59,105 bases of DNA from an uncultured Gammaproteobacteria bacterium (GTDB taxonomy: Bacteria > Patescibacteriota > Patescibacteriia > 2-01-FULL-39-33), in contig CAZHYS010000004.1 of assembly GCA_964536975.1 (NCBI GenBank), forward strand, positions 10,760-69,864. The letters run 5' to 3'. The notes under the pieces were generated by a model. It was not told the DNA's origin. It worked only from the letters and a program-made list of their open reading frames with translations, and ran no database searches. Shown here in pieces: positions 4,991 through 25,988 of the stretch. The stretch's first letter is position 1; the number at the start of each line of letters is the position of its first letter. The translations under genes and the position numbers were made by a program.

Positions 4991-7936
4991 ATGCGCTTAA
5001 CTTCTTTTTCATTAAGGAAGAACAATTATTACAGAAAAACCGCCAACCTGCTCTTTTGGGGCATGGTTTTGGTGGTTTTTTTGTTTTTATTGCCGGCCGT
5101 GGCCATGGCCGAAACTGGTCCGTTGGAAAATTATGGTTTGGAGGCCGCTTCAGAATTTGGTCTTGGTTCAGCCGGATTAGTAGAAACTATTACTAGAATC
5201 ATCCAAGTAATTTTAGGGGTCTTGGGAATTTTGGCGGTTTTATTGATTCTGTACGCCGGTTATATTTGGATGACTGCCGGGGGCGACGGCGCTAAGGTAG
5301 AAAAAGCGAAAAAAGTAATAATTAACGCCACAATTGGCTTGGTGATTATTTTTTCCGCTTTTGCGATAGTTTCTTTTGTCATCAGTCAGCTGTGGGGTGG
5401 CAATGGCGAATCTAGCGGCGGTCCTCATCCCGGCGGTTATGATGATTTATCGCGCTGGGGCATTGGTGCTGGTCCGATTCAGAGCGTCTATCCGGCGCCG
5501 AACCAGCGCGATGTGCCGATAAATACTTGGATTGCAGTCACTTTTAAAGAAGAAGTTGTCCCGGCCAGTATTTGTAATGTCGGTGAAGTCGGGGAAAACA
5601 ATAAATGCGATGGCGATACCATGCTGAATATTGACATTTGTAAGCTCGGCGCTGACAATTTTTGTGAAACAGGAACAGATTTTTCTACCGACAAATTTGT
5701 TGGCTCTACCGTTTTTCAAACCGCCGATGCCAAAACCTTCGTAATCACGCCAAAAATTTATCTTGGCTTGGAAGATCGTCAGGACCGGGAATTTATGGTT
5801 ACCCTCAAAGAAGGAATTTCCCGCGCTGCTGACGGAGAGCCAATTCTGGAGAGGTTGGTTAGTCGGCAATTTACCTGGTCGTTTTTTACTAATGGCGAAT
5901 TGGATCTTGACCCGCCGGAAGTTCTTAGCGCTACCGGAGGAGTCTCGCCCGCGCCGGATGACAGCGCGGATAGCTATAGCGCCGCTTCTAATCCGACCCC
6001 GACTGTTTTTACTTATCAAATTTCCGATCAGACAAACATAATTTCTGAAGTTGCCGCTGCCTTTACTCAGCCGGCGGCCTTGGTTGTTGGTTCACCATCA
6101 GCCACGATTTCTGGAAATTACGGCGGTTCGGCTAGCGGTTTAGTAACGGTGACCATTGGTCCAAGCGGCGATACAGTCTCAGTTGATTGGCCATCAGGCA
6201 TGCAAGACTACGGCGGGTCTTATGGTGGCGGACAGATAGTCAACATCGGTCCTTATGGTTTGACTTTTTCTTTGGCGTCAGTAGCAACTGCGGGAAACTC
6301 CTGGCAATTTTCTGTTACCGCTTATCGAGCCGGAGATTATATTGAACTTTTGGCCGGCTCTTCCTCGGTAAAAAAGTATTTATTCGGCCGGGAAATTATC
6401 ATAGGCGCCACCGCGGCGGCTACCACTGCCAACATCACTTCCGCGATTATTAATCAGAGCGGCGATATTTTTACCGCCGAAGGGACCAATATGGTTGCTA
6501 CTAGAGAGACTGGAGAAAATAGCGTTAGATATTCATTGAAATTTATTTTTTCCGGTTCGGTGCCGTATGTATTAGAAAAAGACGATGGCTTAAGCTCCAC
6601 CCAAACCAGGACGACGGTCGGAAGACCCGATGCTTATCGTAATCAATTATTTGAAATAGAGTTTAATGAACCAATCAACCCCATTGCCATTGATAATATC
6701 GTCGTTAAGTATGATCGCAATTCTGATGGTGATTTTGACGATTCGGAAGATATTTTAAGCGATATTTGGATGGAGATGTCCAGTGATTATCGGACGATTG
6801 GTTTGCGCGGGTCAATAGAATGCGGGGTTAATACCTGTGGCGAAAGAATTTATTGCTGGCCGATGCGTGATGGCGCTTCTGATAGTGGCGCTTCCACTCA
6901 ATATCAAGTGGAAATTTCCGCCAACACTCTAATGGATTGCAGTGACCCTCGTTGTGCTCAATGGCAAGGAAGCTGTGTTGGCGGTAGTGATAACCGGTGT
7001 GCCCGTGATATTTACGGCAAAACCGTTTTTTATCCCGGCGTTAATTCCAACCTAAGTACAATTGACGGCATCATTGATTTAGCCGGGAACTCCTTCAATG
7101 GCAGTTTTGATTCTTATGAGGAAAACGGCAAGGCATATGGTTTGGCCAACGGACCAAAGAGTTTTTATGATCTAAATCTGTCAAATCCATTATTCAATCC
7201 TTCAAATCCGGAGCAGGGAGGTTTTGGCGACAATTTCCGTTGGAGTTTTTGGGTGTCCAGCGACGTTGATCGCCAAGCGCCTCTAATAAAAGGAATCGGA
7301 CCGGAGAGTATGATCGGCGGCGCCATGACGGCTGATTTTGATCAAAGCGTTGATGTTTCTTTTGACCGGTTAATGCGAAGCGCGACTTTAAAGCCCGGTT
7401 GGAATTACGGTTCAAAAGATGACGAAAAAACCAGAACGACCCGCTATTTGGCGCTTAGCACTTTGACTTCCGGCGCCAACGCAGTCGGTTTTTGGATTAA
7501 TAAAGAAAATTACGACGAGAACAATGATCGCTGGCCTGACTATACTGTCGCTTCCATTGGCCATCATGTTTTGGATGAATATATTAGTTATGCTCCACTG
7601 GCAGGTTCGGGAATAGAATCAATTACCCAGAACTGTTTTTTGCCTAGCGCCGGTCCGGAAGATGCCGGGATAGGAGTTTGCGAATATACTGGCGAAGAAG
7701 CAAAGACCGGCTGCGTTGGCGTCCATTTGCCCAACCCGGCTTCTTATGGTTATTTAAATTGCAATGAAATAGCTGATGCGTCTGTTTGCACCAATCCAGA
7801 TTTTACCTGTCAGCCGCTATATGCCGGAGCCAGCGAGGAGGTCTCCGGTAGCTGGGTGATTACCAGAGATCATCCGTCAGCTGATCCGGCTACCGGTCGA
7901 ACCGGTTGTTGTTTTGGCAAGTGCCAGGAACAATAA
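4991..7936 (+). CDS. 981-aa surface protein: signal peptide, VirB2/TrbC-like (T4SS_pilin) module, SbsA/Big_5-type Ig-like domains, Cys-rich segments
   Basis: PAVAMA|E SPase I site; two-TM pilin module GYIWMTAGGD..KVEKAKKVI.NATIGLVII; Ig-like repeats (VYPAPNQRDVP..WIAVTFKE...FTWSFFT; IEFNEPINP; VSFDRLM). Confidence 0.8.
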   Translation: MRLTSFSLRKNNYYRKTANLLFWGMVLVVFLFLLPAVAMAETGPLENYGLEAASEFGLGSAGLVETITRIIQVILGVLGILAVLLILYAGYIWMTAGGDGAKVEKAKKVIINATIGLVIIFSAFAIVSFVISQLWGGNGESSGGPHPGGYDDLSRWGIGAGPIQSVYPAPNQRDVPINTWIAVTFKEEVVPASICNVGEVGENNKCDGDTMLNIDICKLGADNFCETGTDFSTDKFVGSTVFQTADAKTFVITPKIYLGLEDRQDREFMVTLKEGISRAADGEPILERLVSRQFTWSFFTNGELDLDPPEVLSATGGVSPAPDDSADSYSAASNPTPTVFTYQISDQTNIISEVAAAFTQPAALVVGSPSATISGNYGGSASGLVTVTIGPSGDTVSVDWPSGMQDYGGSYGGGQIVNIGPYGLTFSLASVATAGNSWQFSVTAYRAGDYIELLAGSSSVKKYLFGREIIIGATAAATTANITSAIINQSGDIFTAEGTNMVATRETGENSVRYSLKFIFSGSVPYVLEKDDGLSSTQTRTTVGRPDAYRNQLFEIEFNEPINPIAIDNIVVKYDRNSDGDFDDSEDILSDIWMEMSSDYRTIGLRGSIECGVNTCGERIYCWPMRDGASDSGASTQYQVEISANTLMDCSDPRCAQWQGSCVGGSDNRCARDIYGKTVFYPGVNSNLSTIDGIIDLAGNSFNGSFDSYEENGKAYGLANGPKSFYDLNLSNPLFNPSNPEQGGFGDNFRWSFWVSSDVDRQAPLIKGIGPESMIGGAMTADFDQSVDVSFDRLMRSATLKPGWNYGSKDDEKTRTTRYLALSTLTSGANAVGFWINKENYDENNDRWPDYTVASIGHHVLDEYISYAPLAGSGIESITQNCFLPSAGPEDAGIGVCEYTGEEAKTGCVGVHLPNPASYGYLNCNEIADASVCTNPDFTCQPLYAGASEEVSGSWVITRDHPSADPATGRTGCCFGKCQEQ

Positions 7937-7941
7937 AATAA

Positions 7942-10900
7942 ATGAAAAATTTAAATAAAAAAAATAAAAGATTGACTGGACTGGCGGTTTTGCTGGTAGT
8001 GTTTATTGCGGTTCTCTATTTTATCGTTCCAGCCGCTCTGGCGGATGATGGCAGTCTGGAGAATTACGGCCTGGACGCCGCGTCAGGATTCGGTCTTGGC
8101 TCAGCCGGATTAGTGGAAACAATAGGCAATATCATTAAGATATTTCTTGGCTTACTTGGAATTTTGGCGGTTTTATTAGTCTGCTATGGCGGATATTTGT
8201 GGATGACTGCTTCCGGCGATTCCGCTCAAATTGAGAAGGCAAAGAAAATAATTATTGCCGCCGTTATTGGCCTGGTCATTATTTTTTCCGCTTTTGCCAT
8301 TGCTAGCTTTGTCATCAATCAGATTTCCAACGCTACTGGCGCTGATGGCGGCGATGGTGGCGGTGGTACCAATCCCCCTACTCCTTGGGAATTAAATAGC
8401 AAATATTCTTATATCGGCGGTGTTAAGGATGAGACGATTGGCGAGGACGGTTGGTCAAGAAGTATCGGCTGGAATTATGCCGGTGATTTAAGCATTCCCG
8501 CCAGTGCCGGTCTGGAGACTAAAGGTTATGCCAAAGATACAAATAATACAATCGGAACAATGGAGTTTCATGCCACCCCCGATTCGGGTAGTGGCTTTAG
8601 TCTGATTAGTAATTTTAACATTCCTACCGATCGCAATGTCATTATTGATGTGTACGCGCCTTGGGATACTTCCGCTCTTAATGTTGGCGCTAATCCCCTG
8701 GCCAAGATAATGGTGTCGGCGGCCAGTGACAACTTTGAATCAAAGGCGGTCAGTACTATCGTCCGACCGATTCACTGCTTTAATAATATCCAAGATGTGG
8801 CTAGCGGCGAAACCGGTGTTGATTGCGGCGGCGAGTGCGGCGCTTGCGCCGGCGCTCCCTGCGACGCTGATACTGCCACTCCCGTCTGCGACGCTGATAA
8901 TTCCGTTTGTGCCAATGGAGTTTGTGATATTGATGCTGGCTGTATTTGTGCTCAGCTGCCAGAAATTCTTTATATTTCTCCGGCCAGCGATCCAAACAAT
9001 GACACCAATTATGACGATCCTTCCACCTGGGACGATGACGTCGCTAATGGCGCGCCCGGAAATTACATTACCATTTGGGGCAGATATTTCGGCGATGAGC
9101 CAGGTGAAGTAAGGTTTAATGATCAGTTAGCTGATTTAACTCTTAAAGATGGTTGCGATGATACTTGGAATTACTATCAGATAGTCGTAGAAGTGCCTAA
9201 TTTATCTGCTGGTGATTATAATGTCCAAGTTTTCAATGAATACGGCCTAGGGAGTAATGCCAAGATTTTTACTATCAATAATATCAATAGGCCGGGAATT
9301 TGCAGCGCTTATAATTTGACCAAATATAATTCTTCCGCGATCAAAGTCAGTTCTGGCAAGGATGGAGAAGAAGTCGCTGCCATTGGTAATAGTTTTCCGA
9401 CTACCGATGCGGCCGGAGATTTCTTTTGGTATTTCAGCACTCGGACTTTTGATAATGCGAGTCAGACTTGGTCCTATAATCTTGTTGAACACAACAATCA
9501 AAACACGGCCTGGAATTGGGATGGCGATAATAATGCTAAAGATTATGTCCCGACCAATCGGCGCGGCCGGAGTAGTATCAGGGTTTATAATATTGGCAGC
9601 AGTCAATACAGTAATTATTTCAAATTTTTAGTCAGTCCGGGAGCAGCCGGTGATCCTTGCGGTTATGATAGCGGTTTATGCTCGTTGGATTTTGACACTT
9701 GCCAAGAGGGATTATCTTGTAGCGGTGAAACTTGTGCCTGTCAGGAAACGCCGAATATCTGCGGTGATAATCTATTGGGTTCTCAGGAGTCTTGCGATAT
9801 TATAAATGGGAGCTACCGTTTCCATGAAAATAAAGCGTTATGCAGTGATTATAATCTGGGCGCCGGCCAGGTCAGTTGTACTAATAACTGCCAACTGGAC
9901 ATTTCCAAATGCGAGTTTTCTGGTGAGCTGGCCGCGCCAGCCAGCCAGTCAATTTATACTTGGTATTTTTTCACTGGTTATGACGATGATCCCCAGCCAT
10001 ATGTGATTGAGGATTGCAGTCGCAATCGGGAGTGCTCTGTCGGAGCAAAATTGCCAAGTCCCACGCCGTGGAGCGAAGGTTGGAACAAACAGAATTATCC
10101 TTATTATGATATTGATAATCCTTTATCTTGTCTGGATGTGATTGTGTCTGCCAGATTTAATGTTCAAATGGATCCCAAGACAATCAATAGTGATAATATA
10201 AAAGTTTTGAAGTGCGATAATATTGAAGGGAGCAATTGTATTGAAGTAGCTGGCAATTTACGTTTGGTCAGCGACAATAGTGGCAAAGAAGATGACTATT
10301 TCCGTTTTTCGCCCGCCAATCCTTTGTCACCGAATTCTTGGTATAAGGTAGTTTTGCGTAACGGTCTTAATAGCTTGACCGGTAAGAGTTTCCGTTTTAA
10401 TGAGAGCGACGCCGAAAAAGTGGATCATCGTCATTGTCAGATAGCCGGTGTTAATGGTGGCAGTTATAACATTACTGACTCGGTTTATTGCTGGAATTTC
10501 CAAACCCGGTCAAGCAATGATTGCGAACCGGGTTGCGCGGAGTGTTCTCCTGATCCCCATACAATGTATTGGCCGCTATCTACTACAGGTTACTTGGCTG
10601 ACATTGATAGTGATGACAACGTTTGTTTACTGCTTGATCCAGCTGATTATAGTTGGAATTGGAGTACTGATAAATCAGCCAAGCTCGGTATTAATGAGTC
10701 AAACGAGTCTGCCACGGCGGTCGCTATCGGTGAAACTATTTATGACAAGCCAAATCCTTATGCGTCATTATTCGCTGAGATGGTTGGTTATGGCAAAAAG
10801 GATTTTTGTCGCGCTTATAATGATTTTACCAATCCAATCGTAATGGAGGACGCTTCCTGTTCCAGTGGCAATATTCAAAGTCCGACTCCTTGGAAGGATT

Positions 10901-13900
10901 CTCGCGATGCCTGTGTCAATGCGATGATCTCAGCCCGTTTTAGCAGAAATATGGCCGACACAACCATAAATTATTCCAATATTCTTGTCAAAAAATGCAA
11001 TCAGGGTCAGGGTAGCGCCTTTGATAAAAGCGCTTGCGAAGAGGTGGCTTATGATGATTTAAGAATCTTTGATTATAGCCATGAATGGTCGGAAATTACC
11101 CAATCATATTTAACCTCGGAGGAAATGCAGAATTTAATTTCCGATTTGCCGGAAGGATTTATTGTTTCACCGGCCGGTGGAAATCTAGAAGCGAATACCT
11201 GGTATCAGGTGGTTATTTTAGGCGGAGAGAATGGTGTTAGGGGAGCGACGAAAAACGAAGATCCTGAGGGTCGATTGGAAAAGCCAAACTGCGACGGCGA
11301 TGGCGATGGATCCTTTGATGATTATTGTTGGAAATTTCAAACCAGTCGGGAGAATTGCGATATTAACAGCGTAAACGTCGCGCCGCGAAATTTATTTATG
11401 CGCTATACGGACAGCAGTCAGGTTTATAATGCTTTTCCTCAGGCTGCCAATTGTAACTTGCTTAATCCTTATAGTTATATTTGGAATTGGCGTTCCTTAA
11501 TTTCTCTAAATGATGATGTTGGCGAAAATGATTCCGCGGGCGGCAGCGGCATATCGGTCGCTTCTATTTGCAGTGAGTCTGCCAGTTCATGTCAGATTGA
11601 CGATTATTCATCAGATCTGACCAGTCCTAAGGTTAAGGTTTTTGCTCAGGCGGAAGGAGAGACGAATATCAAGGCGCGGGCAGTCAATACTCGCGATGTC
11701 GATTGTTCTTGGAACGACGCGACCTGCGGGGATAAATGGAATTACGGAAAATTACAAGTCGGCTTTGGCGATTTGCGAGTCATTGATTATTCTCCCAGTA
11801 ATACCAAATGTTCTGATGCCGCCATTAGCATTAGCTTCAATATTGACGCCGATGTCGCGACAATAAAACCGAATGATAATCTCTTATTATATAAAGTCGG
11901 ATCATTTGAAAATGGTTCCGAAAGTTTGGTTTTGCAGGAATTAAGAGAAGACATTTATCCCGATTTCAATTATTCATCTTCGGTCAAAATTTCGCCGGCT
12001 GCCACGCTATCAACTGGTACTTATCGGGTAGTATTAAAAGGAGGAACAAAAGAAAATGGCGGCGTTATCGCTTGGAATGGGAAACGATTGGCAGATCTCA
12101 ATTACAATACTTCATCAGATGGCGCGGCTGAAGAATGCGAACCAGAACTTTACCCTTGGAATCAAAAATCAGGAACATGTTCTTCGGCAAGTTGTCTTTT
12201 AATCGGCAATTTGTGTGGCACCGATTCAGCCGAATGCGTTGCCGGATCTATTGATTGCGATAATGAGTGCCATAATTTAGGCAATAATAATGTTGCTTCT
12301 TGCGGCAATAAGGTAGTAGAGAAGGGAGAGGATTGCGATGATGGCAATATCAATAACAATGATGGCTGCAGTAGCGAGTGTCTGTGGGAGGGGTCAAATC
12401 AACGGTGGGGTTCTTTATGTTTGAACGGTGTCAAGGAATACGGTGAGGAGTGTGATTTTGGATCCCAGCAAGAGAACGAGGCAAAGGGTTGCAATTCTTC
12501 TTGTCTGTTTGAAACTGATCCGGAAGGCGACGCCGGCAGTCAGCCGTCAATGTCTGTGTGTGGCAATAATCGAATTGAGGCTGGCGAGGATTGCGATGAT
12601 GGCAATACTTCAAGCGGCGATGGCTGCAAAGGTACGGAAACAGGGCGAGGCTGCCTTAATGAGGGCTCGGATAAATGTTCGCTAACCAATAAGTCCGATT
12701 GTTGCGGCAATAAACAGCTGGAAACCGGCCAGCCGGATAGTTTTTCCTGGACTTTTGATGTTGATCAGCGGGAAGAGGTTTGCTATCCGGGAGCAACTAT
12801 AGACATTAATCCCTGTCCCAACGCGATTTGGCGGGTGATCTTTCCTCAAGGCATTGGCACCGCCAAAGTTACAATTCAGCAGGGATCAAACAGCGAGTCC
12901 AATCCTGATACCACAAAATGCGTCGCTGCGTCCGGACCGCAGAGTTTCTGGCAATCAGCCGTCAAAAAAATTAAAATTGCAATCAAGAAGGCATTTGGTC
13001 AGACAGTTTCCGCTGCCAATTATTGGTGCGCGGTTTCCGAAAAAAATTATAATTTTGACAACTTTGACAATGTTCATATTGACGCTGACGGTTTTGAAAT
13101 GATTGGTTATAAAAATGAAAACCAAGCTGCAATAGTCAACTACATCAAGGATGAAAGCTGGTCTTTAGGAGGAGAATATCGGATTGTGGTGGATTATGAC
13201 AATTATGGTTTATCTACCAAAACGATTACCAAGACGCTGACTGTTTTCTCTCCATCCAGCGGATACCTCAATAGTGACGGTAATTGCGCCTTGACCGGCG
13301 AAATAGTCAATATCTGGCCGGTCGGCGAGGAAAAATATACTGATAATTTTTTCTGCGATGACGATGATTGTGGCCAGGATGATTATGACAGGTATCTGAA
13401 AGATCAAAGCCCGGCGGCTGGCAATAACCATCTTTATCGCGCCTGGGCGATTAATGATAAAATTGAATTAAACAAAAAATATTTAATCAAGCCACAGGAA
13501 GGATTTATTTGGCAAATCGCGGCCACTATACCGTCCGGCCGTTTGAATCTAAGCAATTCAGCAGTTTCAGATACGGCTTATTTGGGTGATCAATGGTTGA
13601 CTTTGACTAAATCAGATTTGGACATTTATGATGCCAGCGGTTGGGCAAGTCTAAGAGTGGTAGCGGCTGAGAATTCGGATAACTATACCGAAAAGGACGT
13701 TGATATTAATGTTTTCTTGTGTGATAATCCGTGGCCGTATCCGGCATTTTTTCCTTTTGTAGATCAAGCCAATAATTGCACTTATTATAATGGCGGTACT
13801 TGCCTAAATACTAATTTTAAAACTTACTATTGTCGGGACAAAGGCGAAAGCGGTCCCCATGATGATTTACCCGCCATCGGCAACTTTGATTATGTTAGTA

Positions 13901-15561
13901 GAAAGATGGATGTCTCAGTCGTCGGTTTGAAAAAGAATATTTTGAAAGAGTTCTTCTTCCCGCGACTTTCTCCAGAAAAATTAAAAGACGATGCCAATTT
14001 TATGGACGGCAATATTCTGGGGTCGGGTCGTTTGATGCTGGTTGATGGTAAAGTCGGCAAAGCCGGAAAGTTTAATCTTGGCGTCGGAGAAGCGGCAATA
14101 GAAGTGCCGGGATTTTGGAACTATATTGATTCGGATGAAGGCAAGGTTGATAATTATGACGAACCAATCACCATTAGTGCCTGGGTAAAGGCGGGGGCGG
14201 CGGATCGGGTGGATTTCTGGGCTGATGGAAACTTCAATGAGGGATCGGCATATTACAATCGGACAACGGGGCAATTTATGATGAGTATGCATAATGTCGG
14301 TGCCAGTTTCAGTGTCGCTCCGGAAGATTTCGATAATTGGCATTTCATCGCCATGTCGGTTCCGGGGTTTGACCATGTTGGGGAGACGGCCAGTTTTTAC
14401 TTTGATGATAAATTGCAAACCAAGATTCAGGTGGCGCGCAATGACGAAATTTCCAGTGGCCCCGAGGATAGCTTACACTTGGGCTATAATCTTGGGGCGG
14501 GTATTTTTGATGGCGCAATTGACGAACTCAAAATACACAAAGCAATTCTGTCAAAAGACGAAATATATAATGGTTCTTCTCGGGGGTTGGTCGCTTATTA
14601 TTCCTTTGATAATCTATACGGCCAGACTGATAATTCTTCCGATACCATAGGCATTCGGGTAGCTCAGAACAATTATCATTATTCTCCGGCTTTGTGGTAT
14701 TTTGGTAATTTTGATACTAATCAGCAGGGCAACCCGAAAGAATCAGTGGTTGACAATTATCCAGCCATTGAAGAAGGACGCACTACTTATGTTGATGCCG
14801 CCGACCTTAACAATAATCGAGAGAAGATTTTTACCGATATCTATTTAGTTTCTTACAGTGAGGGAGCCGACAATGTTACTAAAGAAATTTATTCCTTGTT
14901 GGTTAAGTATTTAGGGTTCAATTTTGGCCACAGCGGAGAGGAAGATGGCGGCCTTATGGCAACCGGAGTTTGCAGCGGTAATGCCAATATAATATGCCGG
15001 ACAGACCGGGATTGCCAAGCGGAAAATTTTGGCTACTGCGACTCCACTAAGGCCAAGTTGACCAGAGACACTGTTCGTCTGGCTGACATTCAGGACGCGA
15101 ACTATCTATTGGAAACATATAAGTCCAAGAAACGTTGCAGTAATGATCAGTCGGTCTCGTGCTCCAATAACAGTCAGTGCTACGGAGGAGGGAGTTGCGG
15201 GGAATATTATCCTATTTTAAAGTCCGGCAGCTATGTCGTTGGGCGCAGCTTCAGCGTCTGGCCGTCATGGCAGGAGACGTTAGCTAAATTTTTGGGTTCG
15301 GTTTTGCCGACAGATCCGCTCAATCAATTGATTGGTTGCAGTAGTCCTTACGACGCCGTTACTTGCTGGAATGAAGTTACCAAATCAATGCAGTGTCCGA
15401 CTGGCGCTAACATCTATTCTTATTATGATAAAAATCAGGCGGGGACTTATTCGGGATTTAAAACAATCAATGAGTACTCTAATGACTGGGACAATGATTT
15501 TGATATTTTTACCGATTTGTCGTTGTTTAATTTTATTAACAGCGAGACGTGCCATCCATAA
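7942..15561 (+). CDS. 2539-aa giant surface protein: signal peptide, VirB2/TrbC-like pilin module, IPT/TIG, Big_5-like Ig domains, Myxococcus-type Cys-rich repeats, LamG-like domain, C-terminal type IV pilin/GspG-like domain
   Basis: PAALA|D site; pilin module; TIG motif GNYITIWGRYFG..PGEVRF; CGN..E.GEDCDDGN repeats; LamG motifs ITISAWVK, WHFIA, FDGAIDELKI; RDTVRLADI...YP...LPTDP. About 95 Cys by hand count. Confidence 0.82.
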   Translation: MKNLNKKNKRLTGLAVLLVVFIAVLYFIVPAALADDGSLENYGLDAASGFGLGSAGLVETIGNIIKIFLGLLGILAVLLVCYGGYLWMTASGDSAQIEKAKKIIIAAVIGLVIIFSAFAIASFVINQISNATGADGGDGGGGTNPPTPWELNSKYSYIGGVKDETIGEDGWSRSIGWNYAGDLSIPASAGLETKGYAKDTNNTIGTMEFHATPDSGSGFSLISNFNIPTDRNVIIDVYAPWDTSALNVGANPLAKIMVSAASDNFESKAVSTIVRPIHCFNNIQDVASGETGVDCGGECGACAGAPCDADTATPVCDADNSVCANGVCDIDAGCICAQLPEILYISPASDPNNDTNYDDPSTWDDDVANGAPGNYITIWGRYFGDEPGEVRFNDQLADLTLKDGCDDTWNYYQIVVEVPNLSAGDYNVQVFNEYGLGSNAKIFTINNINRPGICSAYNLTKYNSSAIKVSSGKDGEEVAAIGNSFPTTDAAGDFFWYFSTRTFDNASQTWSYNLVEHNNQNTAWNWDGDNNAKDYVPTNRRGRSSIRVYNIGSSQYSNYFKFLVSPGAAGDPCGYDSGLCSLDFDTCQEGLSCSGETCACQETPNICGDNLLGSQESCDIINGSYRFHENKALCSDYNLGAGQVSCTNNCQLDISKCEFSGELAAPASQSIYTWYFFTGYDDDPQPYVIEDCSRNRECSVGAKLPSPTPWSEGWNKQNYPYYDIDNPLSCLDVIVSARFNVQMDPKTINSDNIKVLKCDNIEGSNCIEVAGNLRLVSDNSGKEDDYFRFSPANPLSPNSWYKVVLRNGLNSLTGKSFRFNESDAEKVDHRHCQIAGVNGGSYNITDSVYCWNFQTRSSNDCEPGCAECSPDPHTMYWPLSTTGYLADIDSDDNVCLLLDPADYSWNWSTDKSAKLGINESNESATAVAIGETIYDKPNPYASLFAEMVGYGKKDFCRAYNDFTNPIVMEDASCSSGNIQSPTPWKDSRDACVNAMISARFSRNMADTTINYSNILVKKCNQGQGSAFDKSACEEVAYDDLRIFDYSHEWSEITQSYLTSEEMQNLISDLPEGFIVSPAGGNLEANTWYQVVILGGENGVRGATKNEDPEGRLEKPNCDGDGDGSFDDYCWKFQTSRENCDINSVNVAPRNLFMRYTDSSQVYNAFPQAANCNLLNPYSYIWNWRSLISLNDDVGENDSAGGSGISVASICSESASSCQIDDYSSDLTSPKVKVFAQAEGETNIKARAVNTRDVDCSWNDATCGDKWNYGKLQVGFGDLRVIDYSPSNTKCSDAAISISFNIDADVATIKPNDNLLLYKVGSFENGSESLVLQELREDIYPDFNYSSSVKISPAATLSTGTYRVVLKGGTKENGGVIAWNGKRLADLNYNTSSDGAAEECEPELYPWNQKSGTCSSASCLLIGNLCGTDSAECVAGSIDCDNECHNLGNNNVASCGNKVVEKGEDCDDGNINNNDGCSSECLWEGSNQRWGSLCLNGVKEYGEECDFGSQQENEAKGCNSSCLFETDPEGDAGSQPSMSVCGNNRIEAGEDCDDGNTSSGDGCKGTETGRGCLNEGSDKCSLTNKSDCCGNKQLETGQPDSFSWTFDVDQREEVCYPGATIDINPCPNAIWRVIFPQGIGTAKVTIQQGSNSESNPDTTKCVAASGPQSFWQSAVKKIKIAIKKAFGQTVSAANYWCAVSEKNYNFDNFDNVHIDADGFEMIGYKNENQAAIVNYIKDESWSLGGEYRIVVDYDNYGLSTKTITKTLTVFSPSSGYLNSDGNCALTGEIVNIWPVGEEKYTDNFFCDDDDCGQDDYDRYLKDQSPAAGNNHLYRAWAINDKIELNKKYLIKPQEGFIWQIAATIPSGRLNLSNSAVSDTAYLGDQWLTLTKSDLDIYDASGWASLRVVAAENSDNYTEKDVDINVFLCDNPWPYPAFFPFVDQANNCTYYNGGTCLNTNFKTYYCRDKGESGPHDDLPAIGNFDYVSRKMDVSVVGLKKNILKEFFFPRLSPEKLKDDANFMDGNILGSGRLMLVDGKVGKAGKFNLGVGEAAIEVPGFWNYIDSDEGKVDNYDEPITISAWVKAGAADRVDFWADGNFNEGSAYYNRTTGQFMMSMHNVGASFSVAPEDFDNWHFIAMSVPGFDHVGETASFYFDDKLQTKIQVARNDEISSGPEDSLHLGYNLGAGIFDGAIDELKIHKAILSKDEIYNGSSRGLVAYYSFDNLYGQTDNSSDTIGIRVAQNNYHYSPALWYFGNFDTNQQGNPKESVVDNYPAIEEGRTTYVDAADLNNNREKIFTDIYLVSYSEGADNVTKEIYSLLVKYLGFNFGHSGEEDGGLMATGVCSGNANIICRTDRDCQAENFGYCDSTKAKLTRDTVRLADIQDANYLLETYKSKKRCSNDQSVSCSNNSQCYGGGSCGEYYPILKSGSYVVGRSFSVWPSWQETLAKFLGSVLPTDPLNQLIGCSSPYDAVTCWNEVTKSMQCPTGANIYSYYDKNQAGTYSGFKTINEYSNDWDNDFDIFTDLSLFNFINSETCHP
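12298..12730 (+). repeat. Tandem Myxococcus-type cysteine-rich repeats (DUF4215/TIGR02232-like)
   Basis: CGNKVVEKGEDCDDGNINNNDGCSSEC, CLNGVKEYGEECD, CGNNRIEAGEDCDDGNTSSGDGC and CGNKQLE. Perfect 22-nt direct repeat gaggattgcgatgatggcaata at 12328-12349 and 12586-12607. Confidence 0.85.
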
Positions 15562-21324: not shown

Positions 21325-21337
21325 TATAATCCCATTG

Positions 21338-21364
21338 ACGTCCCGAGCAATCGGGACGTTTTTT
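21338..21364 (+). terminator. Intrinsic terminator after ftsZ
   Basis: 9-bp stem acgtcccga/tcgggacgt, GCAA tetraloop, T-run. Confidence 0.85.
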
Positions 21365-21371: not shown

Positions 21372-21423
21372 ATGGCCGATAGTGGTGACAAGAAAAGCGA
21401 TTTTTTCCTTTAAAATCAGGACT

Positions 21424-21453
21424 TTGACAGTTTTTGTCGTGGGGGAGTATAAT
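21424..21453 (+). promoter_or_regulatory. Consensus sigma70 promoter for nrdD operon
   Basis: TTGACA (21424-21429), 18 nt spacer, TATAAT (21448-21453). Confidence 0.75.
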
Positions 21454-21573
21454 AAGGTTATCCTGTTTTTAGGCGAGGGTAGATCTAAGAATTCTGAATT
21501 TTAAAATATTAGATTATAATTCAGTTTCTGGGTCTATTTTTTGTCACCATAAAGACATAAAAGAGCTTTTTAT

Positions 21574-23619
21574 ATGGAAAACCAAATCAAGCAAATCAGA
21601 AAAAGAGACGGCAGTATCGCTGATTTCGATCAGGGTAAAATCGCTCAGGCAATTTATAAATCTTTAAAGGCGGTCGGGCGCGACGATACAGTATTGGCGG
21701 ACAGTATTTCAGAGAAAGTGGTCAAAGCCCTCAATAACAAATTCCACCCTCGCTCCATTCCGGCCATTGAAGAGATTCAGGACATGGTAGAGGAGACGCT
21801 TATCAGAGAAGACCTGGTAAAAGCGGCCAAGGCTTATATTATTTACCGCGAACAGCATGCCCGGTTAAGAGATCTCAAAAAATTGCTTGATTCTAATGAT
21901 ATTATAGAAGGATATTTGAAACAGCTGGATTGGCGGGTCAAAGAAAATGCTAACATGACCTATTCTTTGCAGGGCTTGAATAATCATGTTGCCTCGGCGG
22001 TCAGTTCCAATTATTGGTTAAATAAAATCTATCCGCCGGAAATAAGGGATGCCCATGTTGATGGATCTTTGCATATTCATGATTTACAGCTTTTGGCGGT
22101 TTATTGTTGCGGTTGGGATTTACAAGCGCTTTTGCGGCTTGGTTTTGGCGGAGTTGACGGCAAGGTCACCAGCAAGCCGGCTAAACACCTTCGGGTGGCA
22201 CTCGGCCATGTAGTAAATTTTTTTTACACTCTGCAAGGAGAGGCGGCCGGCGCTCAAGCTTTTGCTAATTTTGACACATTGCTGGCGCCATTTGTCCGTC
22301 GTGATAATCTGGATTATAACTCGGTCAAGCAGGCAATGCAGGAGTTTATTTTTAATATGAATGTCCCGACTCGCGTCGGATTCCAGACTCCCTTTACTAA
22401 TTTGACCTTTGATTTGATTTGTCCCAGCACCTTAGCCGATGAGTCGGTAATTATCGGTGGCATTCCTCAAAAAGAAACCTACAAAGAATTTCAGCCGGAA
22501 ATGGATATGATTAACCGCGCCTTTGCCGAAGTAATGATGGAGGGCGACGCCAAGGGTCGGGTTTTCACTTTTCCCATTCCAACTTATAATATTTCTAAAG
22601 ATTTCTCCTGGGACAATAAGATATTGGATCCGATTTGGGAAATGACCGCCAAATATGGCATCCCTTATTTCGCCAACTTTGTTAATAGCGACATGAAAGC
22701 CGAAGATGCTCGCAGTATGTGTTGCCGTCTTCGCCTGGATAATCGTGAATTGCGAAAACGGGGGGGTGGAATGTTTGCCGCCAATCCAATGACTGGATCA
22801 ATTGGTGTAGTAACTATAAATTTGCCGCGAATCGGTTATTTGTCCAAGACTAAGGACGCCTTCTTCAACCGGTTGGGACAAGCAATGGACTTGGGTCGGC
22901 AGAGTTTGAAATTAAAACGGGAAATTTTGGAGAGTTTTACCGAACAAGGACTTTATCCGTACAGTAAATTCTACCTCAAAGATATTAAAGATCGTTTTGG
23001 CGAGTATTGGAAAAATCATTTTAATACCATTGGCATCAATGGCATGAATGAGGCACTGTTGAATTTTATGGGTCGGCCGATTAGCACGCAGGAAGGCCAG
23101 GAGTTCGCCTTAAAGATAATGGATTACATGCTTGTTCGCTTGGGCAAATATCAAGAAGAAGACAATCAGCTCTATAATTTGGAAGCAACGCCGGCCGAGG
23201 GAGCGACTTACCGTTTTGCCAAAAAGGATAAAGAATTATACCCGGATGTTATTGTCGCCAATGAAGAAGTTTATCAGGAGAATGGCGCCGCGCCTTATTA
23301 CACGAATTCCACTCATTTGCCGGTTGGGTTCTCTGATGATATTTTTGATGTTTTGGAAAAACAAGATCCTCTGCAAATAAAATATACCGGCGGCACTGTT
23401 ATTCATGGATTTCTCGGAGAAAAAATGCCTGACGTGGAGAGCACTAAAAGTCTGGTCAAAAAAATAGCGGAAAATTTCCGTTTGCCGTATTATACTTTGA
23501 CCCCGACGTTTTCTATCTGTCCGAAGCACGGATATATTTCCGGTGAACATACCTTTTGTCCGCTGTGCGATGACGAAGTCGGTTTCATCCGCGAGCAAGA
23601 GGAGAAACTGCCTTTATAA
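21574..23619 (+). CDS. nrdD: Class III (anaerobic) ribonucleoside-triphosphate reductase, catalytic chain with ATP-cone, lacking the glycyl-radical tail
   Basis: N-terminal ATP cone IRKRDGSIADFDQGKI; KENAN..YS, LHIHDL, YCCGW, SMCCRLRLD, GSIGVVTINLPR, EATPAEG, YTGGT; Zn site CPKH...CPLC. No RxxGY motif. Confidence 0.95.
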   Translation: MENQIKQIRKRDGSIADFDQGKIAQAIYKSLKAVGRDDTVLADSISEKVVKALNNKFHPRSIPAIEEIQDMVEETLIREDLVKAAKAYIIYREQHARLRDLKKLLDSNDIIEGYLKQLDWRVKENANMTYSLQGLNNHVASAVSSNYWLNKIYPPEIRDAHVDGSLHIHDLQLLAVYCCGWDLQALLRLGFGGVDGKVTSKPAKHLRVALGHVVNFFYTLQGEAAGAQAFANFDTLLAPFVRRDNLDYNSVKQAMQEFIFNMNVPTRVGFQTPFTNLTFDLICPSTLADESVIIGGIPQKETYKEFQPEMDMINRAFAEVMMEGDAKGRVFTFPIPTYNISKDFSWDNKILDPIWEMTAKYGIPYFANFVNSDMKAEDARSMCCRLRLDNRELRKRGGGMFAANPMTGSIGVVTINLPRIGYLSKTKDAFFNRLGQAMDLGRQSLKLKREILESFTEQGLYPYSKFYLKDIKDRFGEYWKNHFNTIGINGMNEALLNFMGRPISTQEGQEFALKIMDYMLVRLGKYQEEDNQLYNLEATPAEGATYRFAKKDKELYPDVIVANEEVYQENGAAPYYTNSTHLPVGFSDDIFDVLEKQDPLQIKYTGGTVIHGFLGEKMPDVESTKSLVKKIAENFRLPYYTLTPTFSICPKHGYISGEHTFCPLCDDEVGFIREQEEKLPL

Positions 23620-23642
23620 GATTAATTAATTATCTTATTCAT

Positions 23643-23795
23643 ATGGAAGGAGACAACACCAAGTCCAAAAGACAGCGTTGCGAAGTATATTCGCGCGTAG
23701 TCGGTTATTTGCGGCCGGTCGACCAATTCAATCCCGGCAAACAATCCGAGTATTATGATCGGAAGACTTATCGGGTCAATAATGGTTTGGCTTAA
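23643..23795 (+). CDS. Stand-alone NrdD glycyl-radical domain, 50 aa (not in ORF track)
   Basis: Hand translation: MEGDNTKSKRQRCEVYSRVVGYLRPVDQFNPGKQSEYYDRKTYRVNNGLA*. This is the NrdD C-terminal RVVGY glycyl-radical motif. Confidence 0.92.
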   Translation: MEGDNTKSKRQRCEVYSRVVGYLRPVDQFNPGKQSEYYDRKTYRVNNGLA

Positions 23796-23807
23796 ATTGT
23801 TCGCTCT

Positions 23808-24500
23808 ATGGAAATTGGAGGACTCCAACCGGTAACTTTATTGGATTATCCGCAAAAAGTGGCAGCGATAATTTTTACACAAGGTTGTAATATGCGCTGT
23901 CCTTTTTGTTATAATCCGAATTTGGTTTTGACCGAATCAGTCAAAATTCCGACTTTTAATTATCGGGAGGTTTTGAAATTTTTGAAGAAAAGAAAAAAGT
24001 ACTTGGATGCCGTTGTAGTCACTGGCGGCGAGCCGACGGTTCAGCCTGATTTGCTGAAATTTTTGAGCCGGATGAAAAAAATCGGCTATCTTATCAAGTT
24101 GGATACCAACGGCCTCAATTCTCGGCTTTTGGAAAAAATAATCTCCGATCGGCTGGCTGATTATCTGGCCATGGATATAAAAGGCCCGTTTAATGATTAT
24201 GGGAGATTCTGCGGCGTTGATGTTTTGCCAGAAAATATTATCAGAAGCGTCGCCCTTATTAAAAAAAGCGGTCTAAATTATGAGTTTCGTAGCACTCTGG
24301 TCAAAGGATTACACAGTAAAAAAGACATTTTGCAAATGGCCGCCGATCTCGGCCGGGTGAAAAAGTATTTTTTGCAAGACTTTTCCCCCGCGGAGCGCTT
24401 GGTCGGTCAGGATTTTACTGGACGCAAGTTCAGCCGCAAAGAAAAAGAAGAAATTTTAAAATTGGTTTCTGATAAAGTTGGCGATTGCCAGTGGCGGTAA
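23808..24500 (+). CDS. nrdG: Anaerobic RNR activating radical SAM enzyme
   Basis: SLLDYP-like LLDYP start, CNMRCPFC (CxxxCxxC), VVTGGEPT, KLDTNG; directly follows nrdD. Confidence 0.93.
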   Translation: MEIGGLQPVTLLDYPQKVAAIIFTQGCNMRCPFCYNPNLVLTESVKIPTFNYREVLKFLKKRKKYLDAVVVTGGEPTVQPDLLKFLSRMKKIGYLIKLDTNGLNSRLLEKIISDRLADYLAMDIKGPFNDYGRFCGVDVLPENIIRSVALIKKSGLNYEFRSTLVKGLHSKKDILQMAADLGRVKKYFLQDFSPAERLVGQDFTGRKFSRKEKEEILKLVSDKVGDCQWR

Positions 24501-24898: not shown

Positions 24899-25988
24899 AT
24901 GAAGGAAATTATTTCTCAAATTAAGGATTTGCAACGGGCAATCTCTAGGAATTGGAGGTTGCTTTGATTTGGATCGTCAAAAAAACGAGATAGCAAAAAT
25001 CGAAACGCGGATCGCCCAGCCGGATTTTTGGACTGACCAGGATGAGGCCAGGCAAATCAGGAAGCGCTATGAGGATTTGAAATTTGAATTGGCGCAGTGG
25101 GAGAAACTAAAAGAAGGGGCGGATAATCTGGCGGAGCTAGCGGCGGCTGATTTTTTGGATGAACAGCTTGAGCGGGAAGTAGCCAGGGATTTTCAATTGC
25201 TGCAAAACCGGTTTTATCAGCTGGATTTTGCGGTTTTATTTTCCGCCACTCACGACAAGGAAAACGCCATTTTATCCATTCACGCCGGTACCGGCGGAGT
25301 TGACGCTCAAGATTGGGCGGAAATGCTTCTACGGATGTATCTGCGGTTCTGCGAACAGCATCAGCTTTTGACGCGGGTAATTGACCGTTCAGACGGCAGT
25401 GAAGCCGGAATCAAAAGCGTGACGATTGAAGTGGAAGGCCGTTACGCTTATGGCTGGCTGAAATCGGAGAACGGCGTTCATCGTTTGGTGAGAATATCGC
25501 CATTTGACGCGGAAAAAATGCGCCACACCTCTTTTGCTTTGGTGGAGGTTTTGCCGGAAATTGAAGATGTAGAGGTGGAAATCAAAGATGATGACTTGAA
25601 AGTGGAAGTGATGCGTGCCGGCGGACATGGCGGTCAAAGCGTCAATACCACCGACAGTGCGGTTAGAATAACTCATTTGCCGACCAAAATCAGCGTCAAA
25701 TGTCAGAACGAAAGATCCCAATTGCAAAACAAAAAAATGGCTTTGAAGATTTTAAAGTCAAAGCTACTCAAATATTACGAGGAGTCGGAAGCGAAAAAAG
25801 TAGAACAATTAAAAGGGGATTACCAACAAGCGCAGTGGGGCAATCAAGCCCGATCCTACGTCTTACAGCCGTACAAGCTGGTCAAAGATCACCGGACCGA
25901 CTACGAGACGGCTGATGTTGATCGAGTTTTGGACGGCGGCTTGGAAGACTTTATTGAAGATTATTTGCGTCAACAGATTAAAAAATAA
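24899..25988 (+). CDS. prfB: Peptide chain release factor 2, programmed +1 frameshift
   Basis: Frame-0 ORF ATG 24899 MKEIISQIKDLQRAISRNWRLL ends at CTT TGA (24962-24967). The +1 frame continues DLDRQK... with GGVDAQDWA, SPF and GGHGGQ. Confidence 0.96.
24954..24968 (+). promoter_or_regulatory. RF2 autoregulatory frameshift site
   Basis: GGAGG TTG CTT TGA T: an internal SD 3 nt before the slippery CTT-TGA, as in the canonical prfB site. Confidence 0.93.

Follow-up and report, generated by a model that had tools for sequence, protein, structure and literature searches.

The stretch examined here, called the window throughout, is a segment of 59,105 nucleotides (nt) from contig CAZHYS010000004.1 of an uncultured member of the Patescibacteria, and it contains an operon for an anaerobic (class III) ribonucleotide reductase (RNR) in which the reductase gene nrdD is divided into two open reading frames (ORFs) followed by the activase gene nrdG. 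The locus very probably encodes a functional two-polypeptide class III RNR with the radical placed on the small subunit, and comparison with related genomes suggests that naturally two-piece enzymes of this kind are common in Patescibacteria and DPANN archaea and have evolved repeatedly. All catalytic elements of the class are present at the locus, namely the MCCR finger loop, the betaA cysteines, the Zn ligands, the RVVGY motif and the CxxxCxxC motif of NrdG.

The large ORF ends with ...FSICPKHGYISGEHTFCPLCDDEVGFIREQEEKLPL and a TAA stop, 16 residues past the Zn site. It matches positions 1–532 of the 562 positions in the Pfam profile PF13597 (NRDD; E 4e-185) and the small ORF matches positions 530–562 (E 8e-10, 38.4 bits against a cut-off of 26.2), and the NCBIfam model NF006126 is divided in the same manner, with positions 2–654 of 684 on the large ORF (1038.9 bits against a cut-off of 548) and 648–683 on the small one. 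Since the coverage is complementary in both collections, the two ORFs tile one NrdD profile with a clean break. Against the solved NrdD chain of T. maritima the core aligns up to residue 609 and residues 12–42 of the small product align to 612–642, which places the break precisely at the boundary of Zn ribbon and glycyl-radical loop, where about 16 and 12 residues have been added. A preliminary description of this DNA had read the locus as an NrdD that stops after its Zn site, an AT-rich spacer of 23 nt and a 50-aa ORF for the radical-bearing tail in another frame before nrdG, and both the ORFs and the tiling of the profiles agree with it.

The core keeps the betaA cysteines C178/C179 in the motif VYCCGW, and its MCCR sequence is one of the two dominant finger-loop types of class III enzymes, MGCR or MCCR (PMC9669993). 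The small subunit consists of a basic head, MEGDNTKSKRQR, followed by CEVYSRVVGYLRPV..FNPGKQSEY.DR, and the columns C13, E14, S17, R18, V19, G21, Y22, R24 and P25 are invariant in its alignment. The barrel profile above its cut-off, the finger-loop and betaA cysteines and an NrdG in the same operon are all features of the class III family; a Zn site and an RVxGY loop on one polypeptide is the feature that is lacking, the RVVGY motif being found on the separate 50-aa product. The only departure from the class III NrdD family definition is the radical loop on a separate chain. The coordinates are given in the table.

Table. Predicted features of the nrd locus in the window, and loci of related radical modules in other sequences (positions within each locus).
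Feature	Position	Strand	Remarks
Intrinsic-terminator-like hairpin closing the upstream ftsZ unit	21337..21360	+	10-bp stem with 6 GC pairs, then a T-run
Sigma-70-type promoter for nrdD, small ORF and nrdG	21424..21453	+	TTGACA-18-TATAAT, 12/12 consensus matches
nrdD core subunit (681 aa)	21574..23619	+	ATP-cone, catalytic barrel and Zn site; without glycyl-radical loop
ATP-cone of nrdD	aa 7–96		PF03477
Finger-loop double cysteine C383/C384, thiyl-radical site	22720..22725	+	Motif SMCCRL
Zn ligands C649-x2-H652 ... C662-x2-C665	23518..23568	+	On the core subunit
Acidic 16-residue C-terminal tail and TAA stop	23569..23619	+	DDEVGFIREQEEKLPL; tail motif kept in all near relatives
AT-rich intergenic spacer, 23 nt	23620..23642	+	Without Shine-Dalgarno motif
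Small radical subunit (50 aa)	23643..23795	+	Frame +2 relative to nrdD; MEGDNTKSKRQRCEVYSRVVGYLRPVDQFNPGKQSEYYDRKTYRVNNGLA
Gly21 codon, predicted radical glycine (RVVG*Y)	23703..23705	+	Invariant in homologue alignment; T. maritima alignment
nrdG activase (230 aa, radical S-adenosylmethionine protein)	23808..24500	+	C27-x3-C31-x2-C34; TIGR02495 NrdG2, 194.2 bits, cut-off 131
Autonomous 88–96-aa genes	L038:3640-3918, L051:3643-3921, L063:3652-3936, L076:3656-3940, L080:3691-3957, L067:3336-3626		
Orphan 107–120-aa ribbon and Gly-loop proteins	L010:2002-2355, L011, L055:3252-3614, L071:3285-3608		Desulfobacterota metagenome-assembled genomes

The small ORF is separated from nrdG by 12 bases, and no promoter or terminator comparable to those in the table was found on the + strand between nrdD, the small ORF and nrdG. 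As no such signal separates them, the three genes should constitute one operon, and the single promoter, the short spacer and the lack of internal signals suggest that core and peptide are synthesized in roughly equimolar amounts. The nrdD leader (21454–21573, about 120 nt) contains an inverted repeat CTGAATT...AATTCAG at about 21502–21530, a candidate operator for NrdR or another regulator, and in the relatives L080 and L145 nrdR lies directly upstream of nrdD.

The division of the gene is reproducible between assemblies and, being kept in hundreds of relatives as well, lies well outside what chance would produce. The junction (23500–23830) is present with zero indels in six assemblies from six samples, four of the six loci representing a 99.6% strain variant that differs by single-nucleotide polymorphisms only, and the exact 50-aa protein is found on 11 contigs. 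In an alignment of the window with three relatives the core stops in the same column by TAA, TGA, TGA and TAG, the spacers are 23, 23, 67 and 126 nt long, and the small ORF starts with the conserved codons ATG-GAA-GGN-GAY-AAC. Compared with the relative L001 over 32 codons, the small ORF shows 14.5 synonymous and 1.5 non-synonymous differences, giving a ratio of non-synonymous to synonymous rates (dN/dS) of 0.012, and against other relatives the ratio is 0.06–0.21, or dS is saturated; the small ORF is, to judge from these values, under purifying selection.

The preliminary description had taken the locus for an established split and not for a frameshift error, and this is borne out by the conserved stop column, the dN/dS values, the truncation of all the best 120 core relatives (below) and the six assemblies, which also settle its concern about an assembly indel. 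It had further described both new ends as carrying extra, non-homologous residues. The extra residues are there, but they are not non-homologous, since relatives share both the core tail CD(E/D)E(I/V)G(Y/F).. and the peptide head MEGDN..(K)RQRC, which together match a linker of 17–20 aa in some fused relatives. Among 38 distinct split pairs the first eight residues of the tail are net acidic in 37 and the last eight of the head net basic in 31, a pattern that fits an electrostatic contribution to docking but may merely be inherited linker composition. The expectation that so small a gene would fall below ORF-calling cut-offs proved wrong, as gene callers have predicted it on all 11 contigs and homologues are present in NCBI, JGI and ENA, where they are labelled 'hypothetical protein' or 'anaerobic ribonucleoside-triphosphate reductase'.

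Searching with the peptide returned 104 stand-alone homologues, all of 41–86 aa and some of them on contigs of 0.7–0.9 Mb. The best 120 relatives of the core (67–90% identity), from Buchananbacteria, Falkowbacteria and other Patescibacteria, are without exception devoid of the Gly loop and end CPxC-D(E/D)E(I/V)G(Y/F).... The order core, small ORF, nrdG is seen in a close relative and in Dojkabacteria, Saccharibacteria, Falkowbacteria, DPANN archaea, Bipolaricaulota and Thermotogae, in a 'Micrarchaeota' metagenome-assembled genome (MAG) and elsewhere, and three of three truncated cores that were chosen blind to the peptide (P0182, P0202, P0216) have a PF13597 ORF of 48–54 aa and nrdG downstream. 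A scan of the GTDB species genomes with the motif YSRVVGY[LI]R gave at least 599 places; the best 80 include 33 split and 40 fused forms, 6 extra autonomous copies beside a fused gene and 7 orphans, a sample that leans to split forms because it is ranked by similarity to the peptide of the window. An exhaustive HMMER search with the core among 1.84 billion cluster representatives (50%-identity clusters) identified 7,664 NrdD relatives. Among the best 150 of these, 59 are fused and at least 62 end directly behind the Zn site; 40 of the latter have the CxxC ending of the window, 18 belong to a second type with the ending CPYPHTEE..., and 4 fit neither. The relatives are therefore not all fused; fused forms throughout would, by the preliminary description, have told against a genuine split.

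In the second truncated type (P0352, P0356, P0357, P0363, P0366, P0465 and others) the last CxxC of the Zn site is changed to CP(Y/F)(P/E)H and the protein ends ...HTEE.L..(F/Y/W)G.E...., a type defined here by the end of its core. Large insertions, one to three per protein, are frequent in this NrdD subfamily, as in L004–L006 (a core of 1333 aa) and in P0132, P0141 and P0148 (about 1003 aa), and many of the representatives P0345–P0494 also carry insertions and reach up to 1879 aa. Those in the Dojkabacteria example show faint or weak Pfam matches to inteins and LAGLIDADG domains. The fused relatives P0411, P0413 and P0443 run past the Gly loop into an extension ...SQAPTL(I/V)V..., a candidate thioredoxin-like fusion.

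The split forms do not constitute a single lineage, being monophyletic in 0 of 200 bootstraps. The split Bipolaricaulota clade is sister to a fused Acetothermia enzyme (199/200), a split Thermotogae enzyme pairs with a fused one from the same phylum (188/200), and parsimony on the neighbour-joining tree requires at least seven changes between the two states, the split having arisen or reverted several times. The heads of the peptides differ between lineages, being short and basic (...KRQRC) in Patescibacteria and DPANN and longer (...GNLILEDGTVIP..ER.RA) in Bipolaricaulota and Thermotogae, and the split form of a Hippea MAG has helical-looking tails. In the fused relatives L024 (...CDKENNYKEGDAESALKRTKCEVYSR) and L032 the linker of 17–20 aa resembles tail plus head, and on this resemblance the simplest path would be insertion of a linker followed by gain of a stop and a start, or the reverse. 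A tandem duplication, with the tail DEEIGY(I/V)RE as a degenerate copy of the radical loop VVGY(L/I)RP, was considered and dropped, the likeness covering five residues and just 'CD' being kept across the split types. The cysteine preceding EVYSR was likewise rejected as a mark of the split, because it is present in many fused forms too.

An artefact or gene decay, in which an assembly or sequencing indel or a pseudogene breaks a single nrdD, retains a practically negligible probability. One window alone cannot exclude an indel of 1–2 nt, and upstream of its start the frame of the small ORF is free of stops as far as 23574, but this explanation is refuted by the indel-free junction in six assemblies, by a stop position that is kept with different stop codons in front of spacers of very different length, and by dN/dS values far below 1, and it would also have to account for hundreds of independent split relatives. 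Somewhat less remote, though still very improbable, is that the two ORFs nonetheless yield a single chain, through programmed frameshifting, read-through, ribosome hopping, RNA splicing or ligation by a split intein. RNR genes are known homes of introns and inteins, many core relatives carry intein-like insertions elsewhere in the gene, and this genome uses a programmed +1 frameshift in prfB. The frame of the peptide relative to the core is however 0, +1 or +2 across the lineages and the spacers range from about -4 (overlap) to +355 nt, which excludes a shared recoding mechanism; a slippery heptamer was not found in 23574–23619, 23 nt is too short for an intron and Rfam gives no match there, and the small ORF opens with a conserved ATG. 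With 16 and 12 aa, 28 together, tail and head fall far below the length that a split intein needs, C13 is not preceded by His-Asn, neither ORF has an intein match in Pfam, and HINT-type terminal motifs were not found in the two ends. Frameshift error, pseudogene formation and recoding are all excluded by the comparative data.

Two explanations of why the split exists, which are not mutually exclusive, have to be weighed. It is quite possible, although it falls short of being probable, that the fission was neutral, a linker inserted between the Zn ribbon and the Gly loop having gained a stop and a start, with pieces that assemble tightly and without benefit. The long-linker fused relatives L024 and L032 sit among the split forms, split and fused sisters occur within one phylum with the high bootstrap values given above, and for the split class II enzyme NrdJa/NrdJb the authors named no clear advantage (PMC4520616). 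A neutral origin sits less easily with the retention of the split across a huge and old radiation (all of the best 120 relatives, and about half of the nearest clusters), with the conserved tail and head motifs and their complementary charge, and with the related stand-alone modules found in phages and as extra genes. We regard it more tentatively as a possibility, in line with the preliminary description, that the split was selected since it makes the radical part cheap and exchangeable, so that O2 would cleave the 50-aa peptide only and a fresh copy activated by NrdG would replace it. The precedent, already pointed out in the preliminary description, is well established: pyruvate formate-lyase (PFL) cleaved by O2 is rescued by GrcA/YfiD (PMC8683613). 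In six genomes, moreover, an intact fused nrdD is kept and a gene of 88–96 aa with Zn ribbon and Gly loop is inserted before nrdG, a stand-alone radical peptide is the only part of the system on about 28 viral contigs and phage-like loci, and fission at this junction happened repeatedly, in at least three lineages, which may point to an advantage. Yet recurrence is also expected of a merely permissive site, the tight operon layout suggests 1:1 synthesis and not a surplus of spares, the idea presupposes that a damaged peptide can leave the barrel, and the weight of O2 damage is uncertain for the many hosts that are strict anaerobes of groundwater and sediment.

Several points weigh against the reading of the locus as a functional two-polypeptide enzyme. 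Expression, complex formation, the radical on the peptide and activity are predictions made from sequence, and some of the truncated database entries could be gene fragments, though their ends cluster just after the Zn site. In a PDB sequence search the peptide alone matches solved NrdD structures weakly (E 0.14 to T. maritima), its top match being a spurious designed protein. No second RNR is visible within the 59-kb window, which cannot show whether the split enzyme is the sole RNR of the organism.

In the two-polypeptide enzyme as we propose it, core, peptide and activase would be transcribed from the one promoter. The 681-aa core should supply ATP-cone, Zn ribbon and a substrate barrel whose MCCR finger loop is the site of the thiyl radical, and the 50-aa peptide the glycyl-radical loop (RVVGY, Gly21) and a C-terminal strap. 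NrdG would act on the peptide, whether free or docked beforehand, by abstracting a hydrogen atom from Gly21. The loop would then lie in the barrel of the core beside Cys383/384, like the attached loop of single-chain NrdDs, and would hand the radical on to the finger-loop cysteine with every turnover. The acidic core tail and the basic peptide head, the two halves of a linker kept whole in some relatives, probably assist docking, and the docked loop would be held by the strap and the contacts between tail and head. In glycyl-radical enzymes the loop must leave the barrel to reach the activase, so a loop in the form of a separate peptide is mechanistically reasonable. Cryo-electron microscopy of the P. 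copri NrdD shows a glycyl-radical domain composed of the Zn site, then the buried Gly loop and then a surface tail, which moves as a unit: it is ordered in the active state, cannot be seen in the inhibited one, and leaves and re-enters the barrel (PMC11226230). Such mobility makes a non-covalent radical domain physically plausible.

To our knowledge glycyl-radical enzymes are taught as single chains with the radical glycine in their own C-terminal domain, GrcA being the lone accessory exception. The single-chain NrdD/NrdG systems of E. coli, phage T4, T. maritima and P. copri share with the window NF006126/PF13597, the ATP-cone, MCCR, the Zn site, RVVGY, NrdG2 and the operon, but here the chain is cut between Zn ribbon and Gly loop, so that the ribbon stays on the core and loop and strap form a 50-aa protein, and an acidic tail of 16 aa and a basic head of 12 aa are added. 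As in GrcA/YfiD, which is about 127 aa long, the radical glycine resides on a small separate protein. The peptide is much smaller and has no sequence relationship to GrcA; it gave no match to a PFL-type glycyl-radical domain at E <= 0.1 in Pfam, only to PF13597. GrcA is activated by the activase of PFL itself and complements in trans an enzyme body without an intact radical domain (PMC8683613). It is nevertheless an accessory that acts after damage to an enzyme with its own radical domain, while the core in the window never has a Gly loop, and since the best 120 relatives also lack it the 50-aa peptide is expected to be obligatory, not kept in reserve. GrcA is better compared with a family of about 90 aa with Zn ribbon and Gly loop beside an intact nrdD, described below, whose partner has a radical domain of its own.

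In class I RNR the radical is likewise stored on a subunit apart from the catalytic barrel. This beta subunit, however, is an unrelated metalloprotein of the ferritin-like kind, and the radical that it delivers has a long way to travel. The 'genes-in-pieces' NrdA of phage Aeh1 is reportedly a cut RNR gene whose products still assemble into active enzyme, the split being said to result from a homing endonuclease gene between the halves. In the spacers studied here, the longest of which is 355 nt, neither a homing endonuclease gene nor a remnant of one was seen, and this origin was dropped. The split class II NrdJa/NrdJb of P. aeruginosa resembles the window in that the catalytic chain of an RNR is divided over two adjacent genes of one operon, and the small C-terminal piece NrdJb is needed for activity in vivo (PMC4520616), but the class and the break point are different and NrdJb carries a Zn-finger/thiol-relay tail and not the source of the radical. 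Surveys of RNRs recognize only class II as split in cellular organisms, from which this locus departs; Burnim et al. (2022) discarded sequences under 400 aa and described split domains as distinct to class II, and in a 2026 review of glycyl-radical enzymes GrcA is the only split or stand-alone form mentioned. In the openly searchable full-text literature, subscription-only papers being outside its scope, no description of a split NrdD or of an NrdD-type spare part was found.

If the two-polypeptide enzyme is real, it would offer a minimal natural substrate for studying how NrdG installs a radical, a way to test directly if activation requires the radical domain to move out of the barrel, and a natural system for asking if an RNR damaged by O2 can be repaired by exchange of a subunit. 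Hundreds of small genes named 'hypothetical' or misnamed 'NrdD', including those of phages that have been read as complete reductases, would be due for re-annotation, and whoever reconstructs the metabolism of ultra-small organisms might wrongly discard a 'truncated' nrdD as a pseudogene.

Radical modules that stand alone are also found beside the split family. In six genomes, from Minisyncoccales and Paceibacterota MAGs and others, an intact fused nrdD is separated from nrdG by a gene of 88–96 aa that has a CxxC...CxxC Zn ribbon and a (C/T)EVYSRVVGY Gly loop of its own (table). The family of about 90 aa has 924 clusters at E <= 1e-3, mostly from Paceibacterota, the best 120 of which are all 76–110 aa long, and it includes MNSN_06970, a 'hypothetical protein' of the cultured Minisyncoccus archaeiphilus; the source databases call these proteins 'NrdD' or 'hypothetical'. 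At the level of the gene, the copy beside a fused nrdD is predicted to be the true counterpart of GrcA. Orphan proteins of 93–120 aa with ribbon and Gly loop occur in Desulfobacterota and Parcubacteria, those of the Desulfobacterota far from any nrdD among unrelated genes on the other strand, and in L034 (424 aa) and L083 (166 aa) the module forms the end of a longer ORF.

Stand-alone NrdD radical peptides of 59–79 aa with the consensus ..GDLVLDNG.IPAEKRQRCEVYSRVVGYLRPVAQWNKGKKAEWADR are encoded on phage contigs (L012/L013:3501-3692, and L096–L121 from IMG/VR), and their head resembles that of the small subunits of Bipolaricaulota and Thermotogae. A 63-aa radical peptide is located between the terminase and portal genes of phage-like contigs; in L012 it lies between the terminase large subunit and the portal, has no PHROG match and is accompanied by neither an NrdD core nor nrdG within 4 kb. 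In a scan of IMG/VR about 28 viral contigs proved to encode such a peptide by itself, neither core nor nrdG being located within 4 kb of it. The archaeal virus ANMV-1 (KP703175.1) encodes a 144-aa ORF with Zn ribbon and Gly loop (L143:3186-3620) that is annotated 'anaerobic ribonucleoside triphosphate reductase' and was taken in the 2015 ANMV-1 paper as evidence of a complete oxygen-sensitive RNR encoded by the virus; the ORF as predicted is the radical module only. Together the extra genes of about 90 aa and the phage peptides give circumstantial support for use of the radical module in trans. A wider idea, speculative and on present evidence rather unlikely, is that much of the microbial world uses the glycyl-radical loop of class III RNR as an exchangeable protein cofactor that stands on its own. 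NrdG would charge a pool of peptides of about 50–100 aa that dock into any compatible NrdD barrel, being constitutive in the split enzymes of the candidate phyla radiation, DPANN, Bipolaricaulota and Thermotogae, kept as spares in the genes of about 90 aa, and used by infecting phages as peptides that re-arm or take over the host reductase.

The remainder of the window is an ordinary segment of a Patescibacteria chromosome with lytR, hisS, large pilin-like surface proteins, ftsA and ftsZ, and, besides the nrd operon, prfB, comEC, fusA, tuf, ribosomal protein genes and one tRNA-Thr. Only 6 of the 52 genes on the + strand have GGAG, GAGG or AGGA within 22 nt upstream, and AT-rich leaders without a Shine-Dalgarno motif include those of tuf, fusA and the ribosomal protein genes; the absence of the motif as a sign that the small ORF is untranslated was rejected, as most genes of the window likewise lack it. 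The prfB gene for release factor 2 (24900–25988) starts at the ATG at 24900 and carries GGAGG-TTG-CTT-TGA-T at 24952–24967, with a programmed +1 frameshift into the main frame that continues to 25988, and this classic CTT-TGA site indicates that UGA is a true stop in this genome. The internal GGAGG stands out in a genome where initiation seldom relies on a Shine-Dalgarno site. Of the heptamer CTTTGAC/GTCAAAG the window contains 28 copies against 7.2 expected (at most 18 in 100 shuffles), most of them in the form GTCAAAG on the + strand and with sites at 21422, 23495 and 24300 among others, which may reflect codon usage or a real motif. Two very large ORFs, 4991–7936 (981 aa, with an N-terminal segment like the type IV secretion system pilin TrbC) and 7942–15561 (2539 aa), probably encode surface or pilus-associated proteins typical of Patescibacteria.

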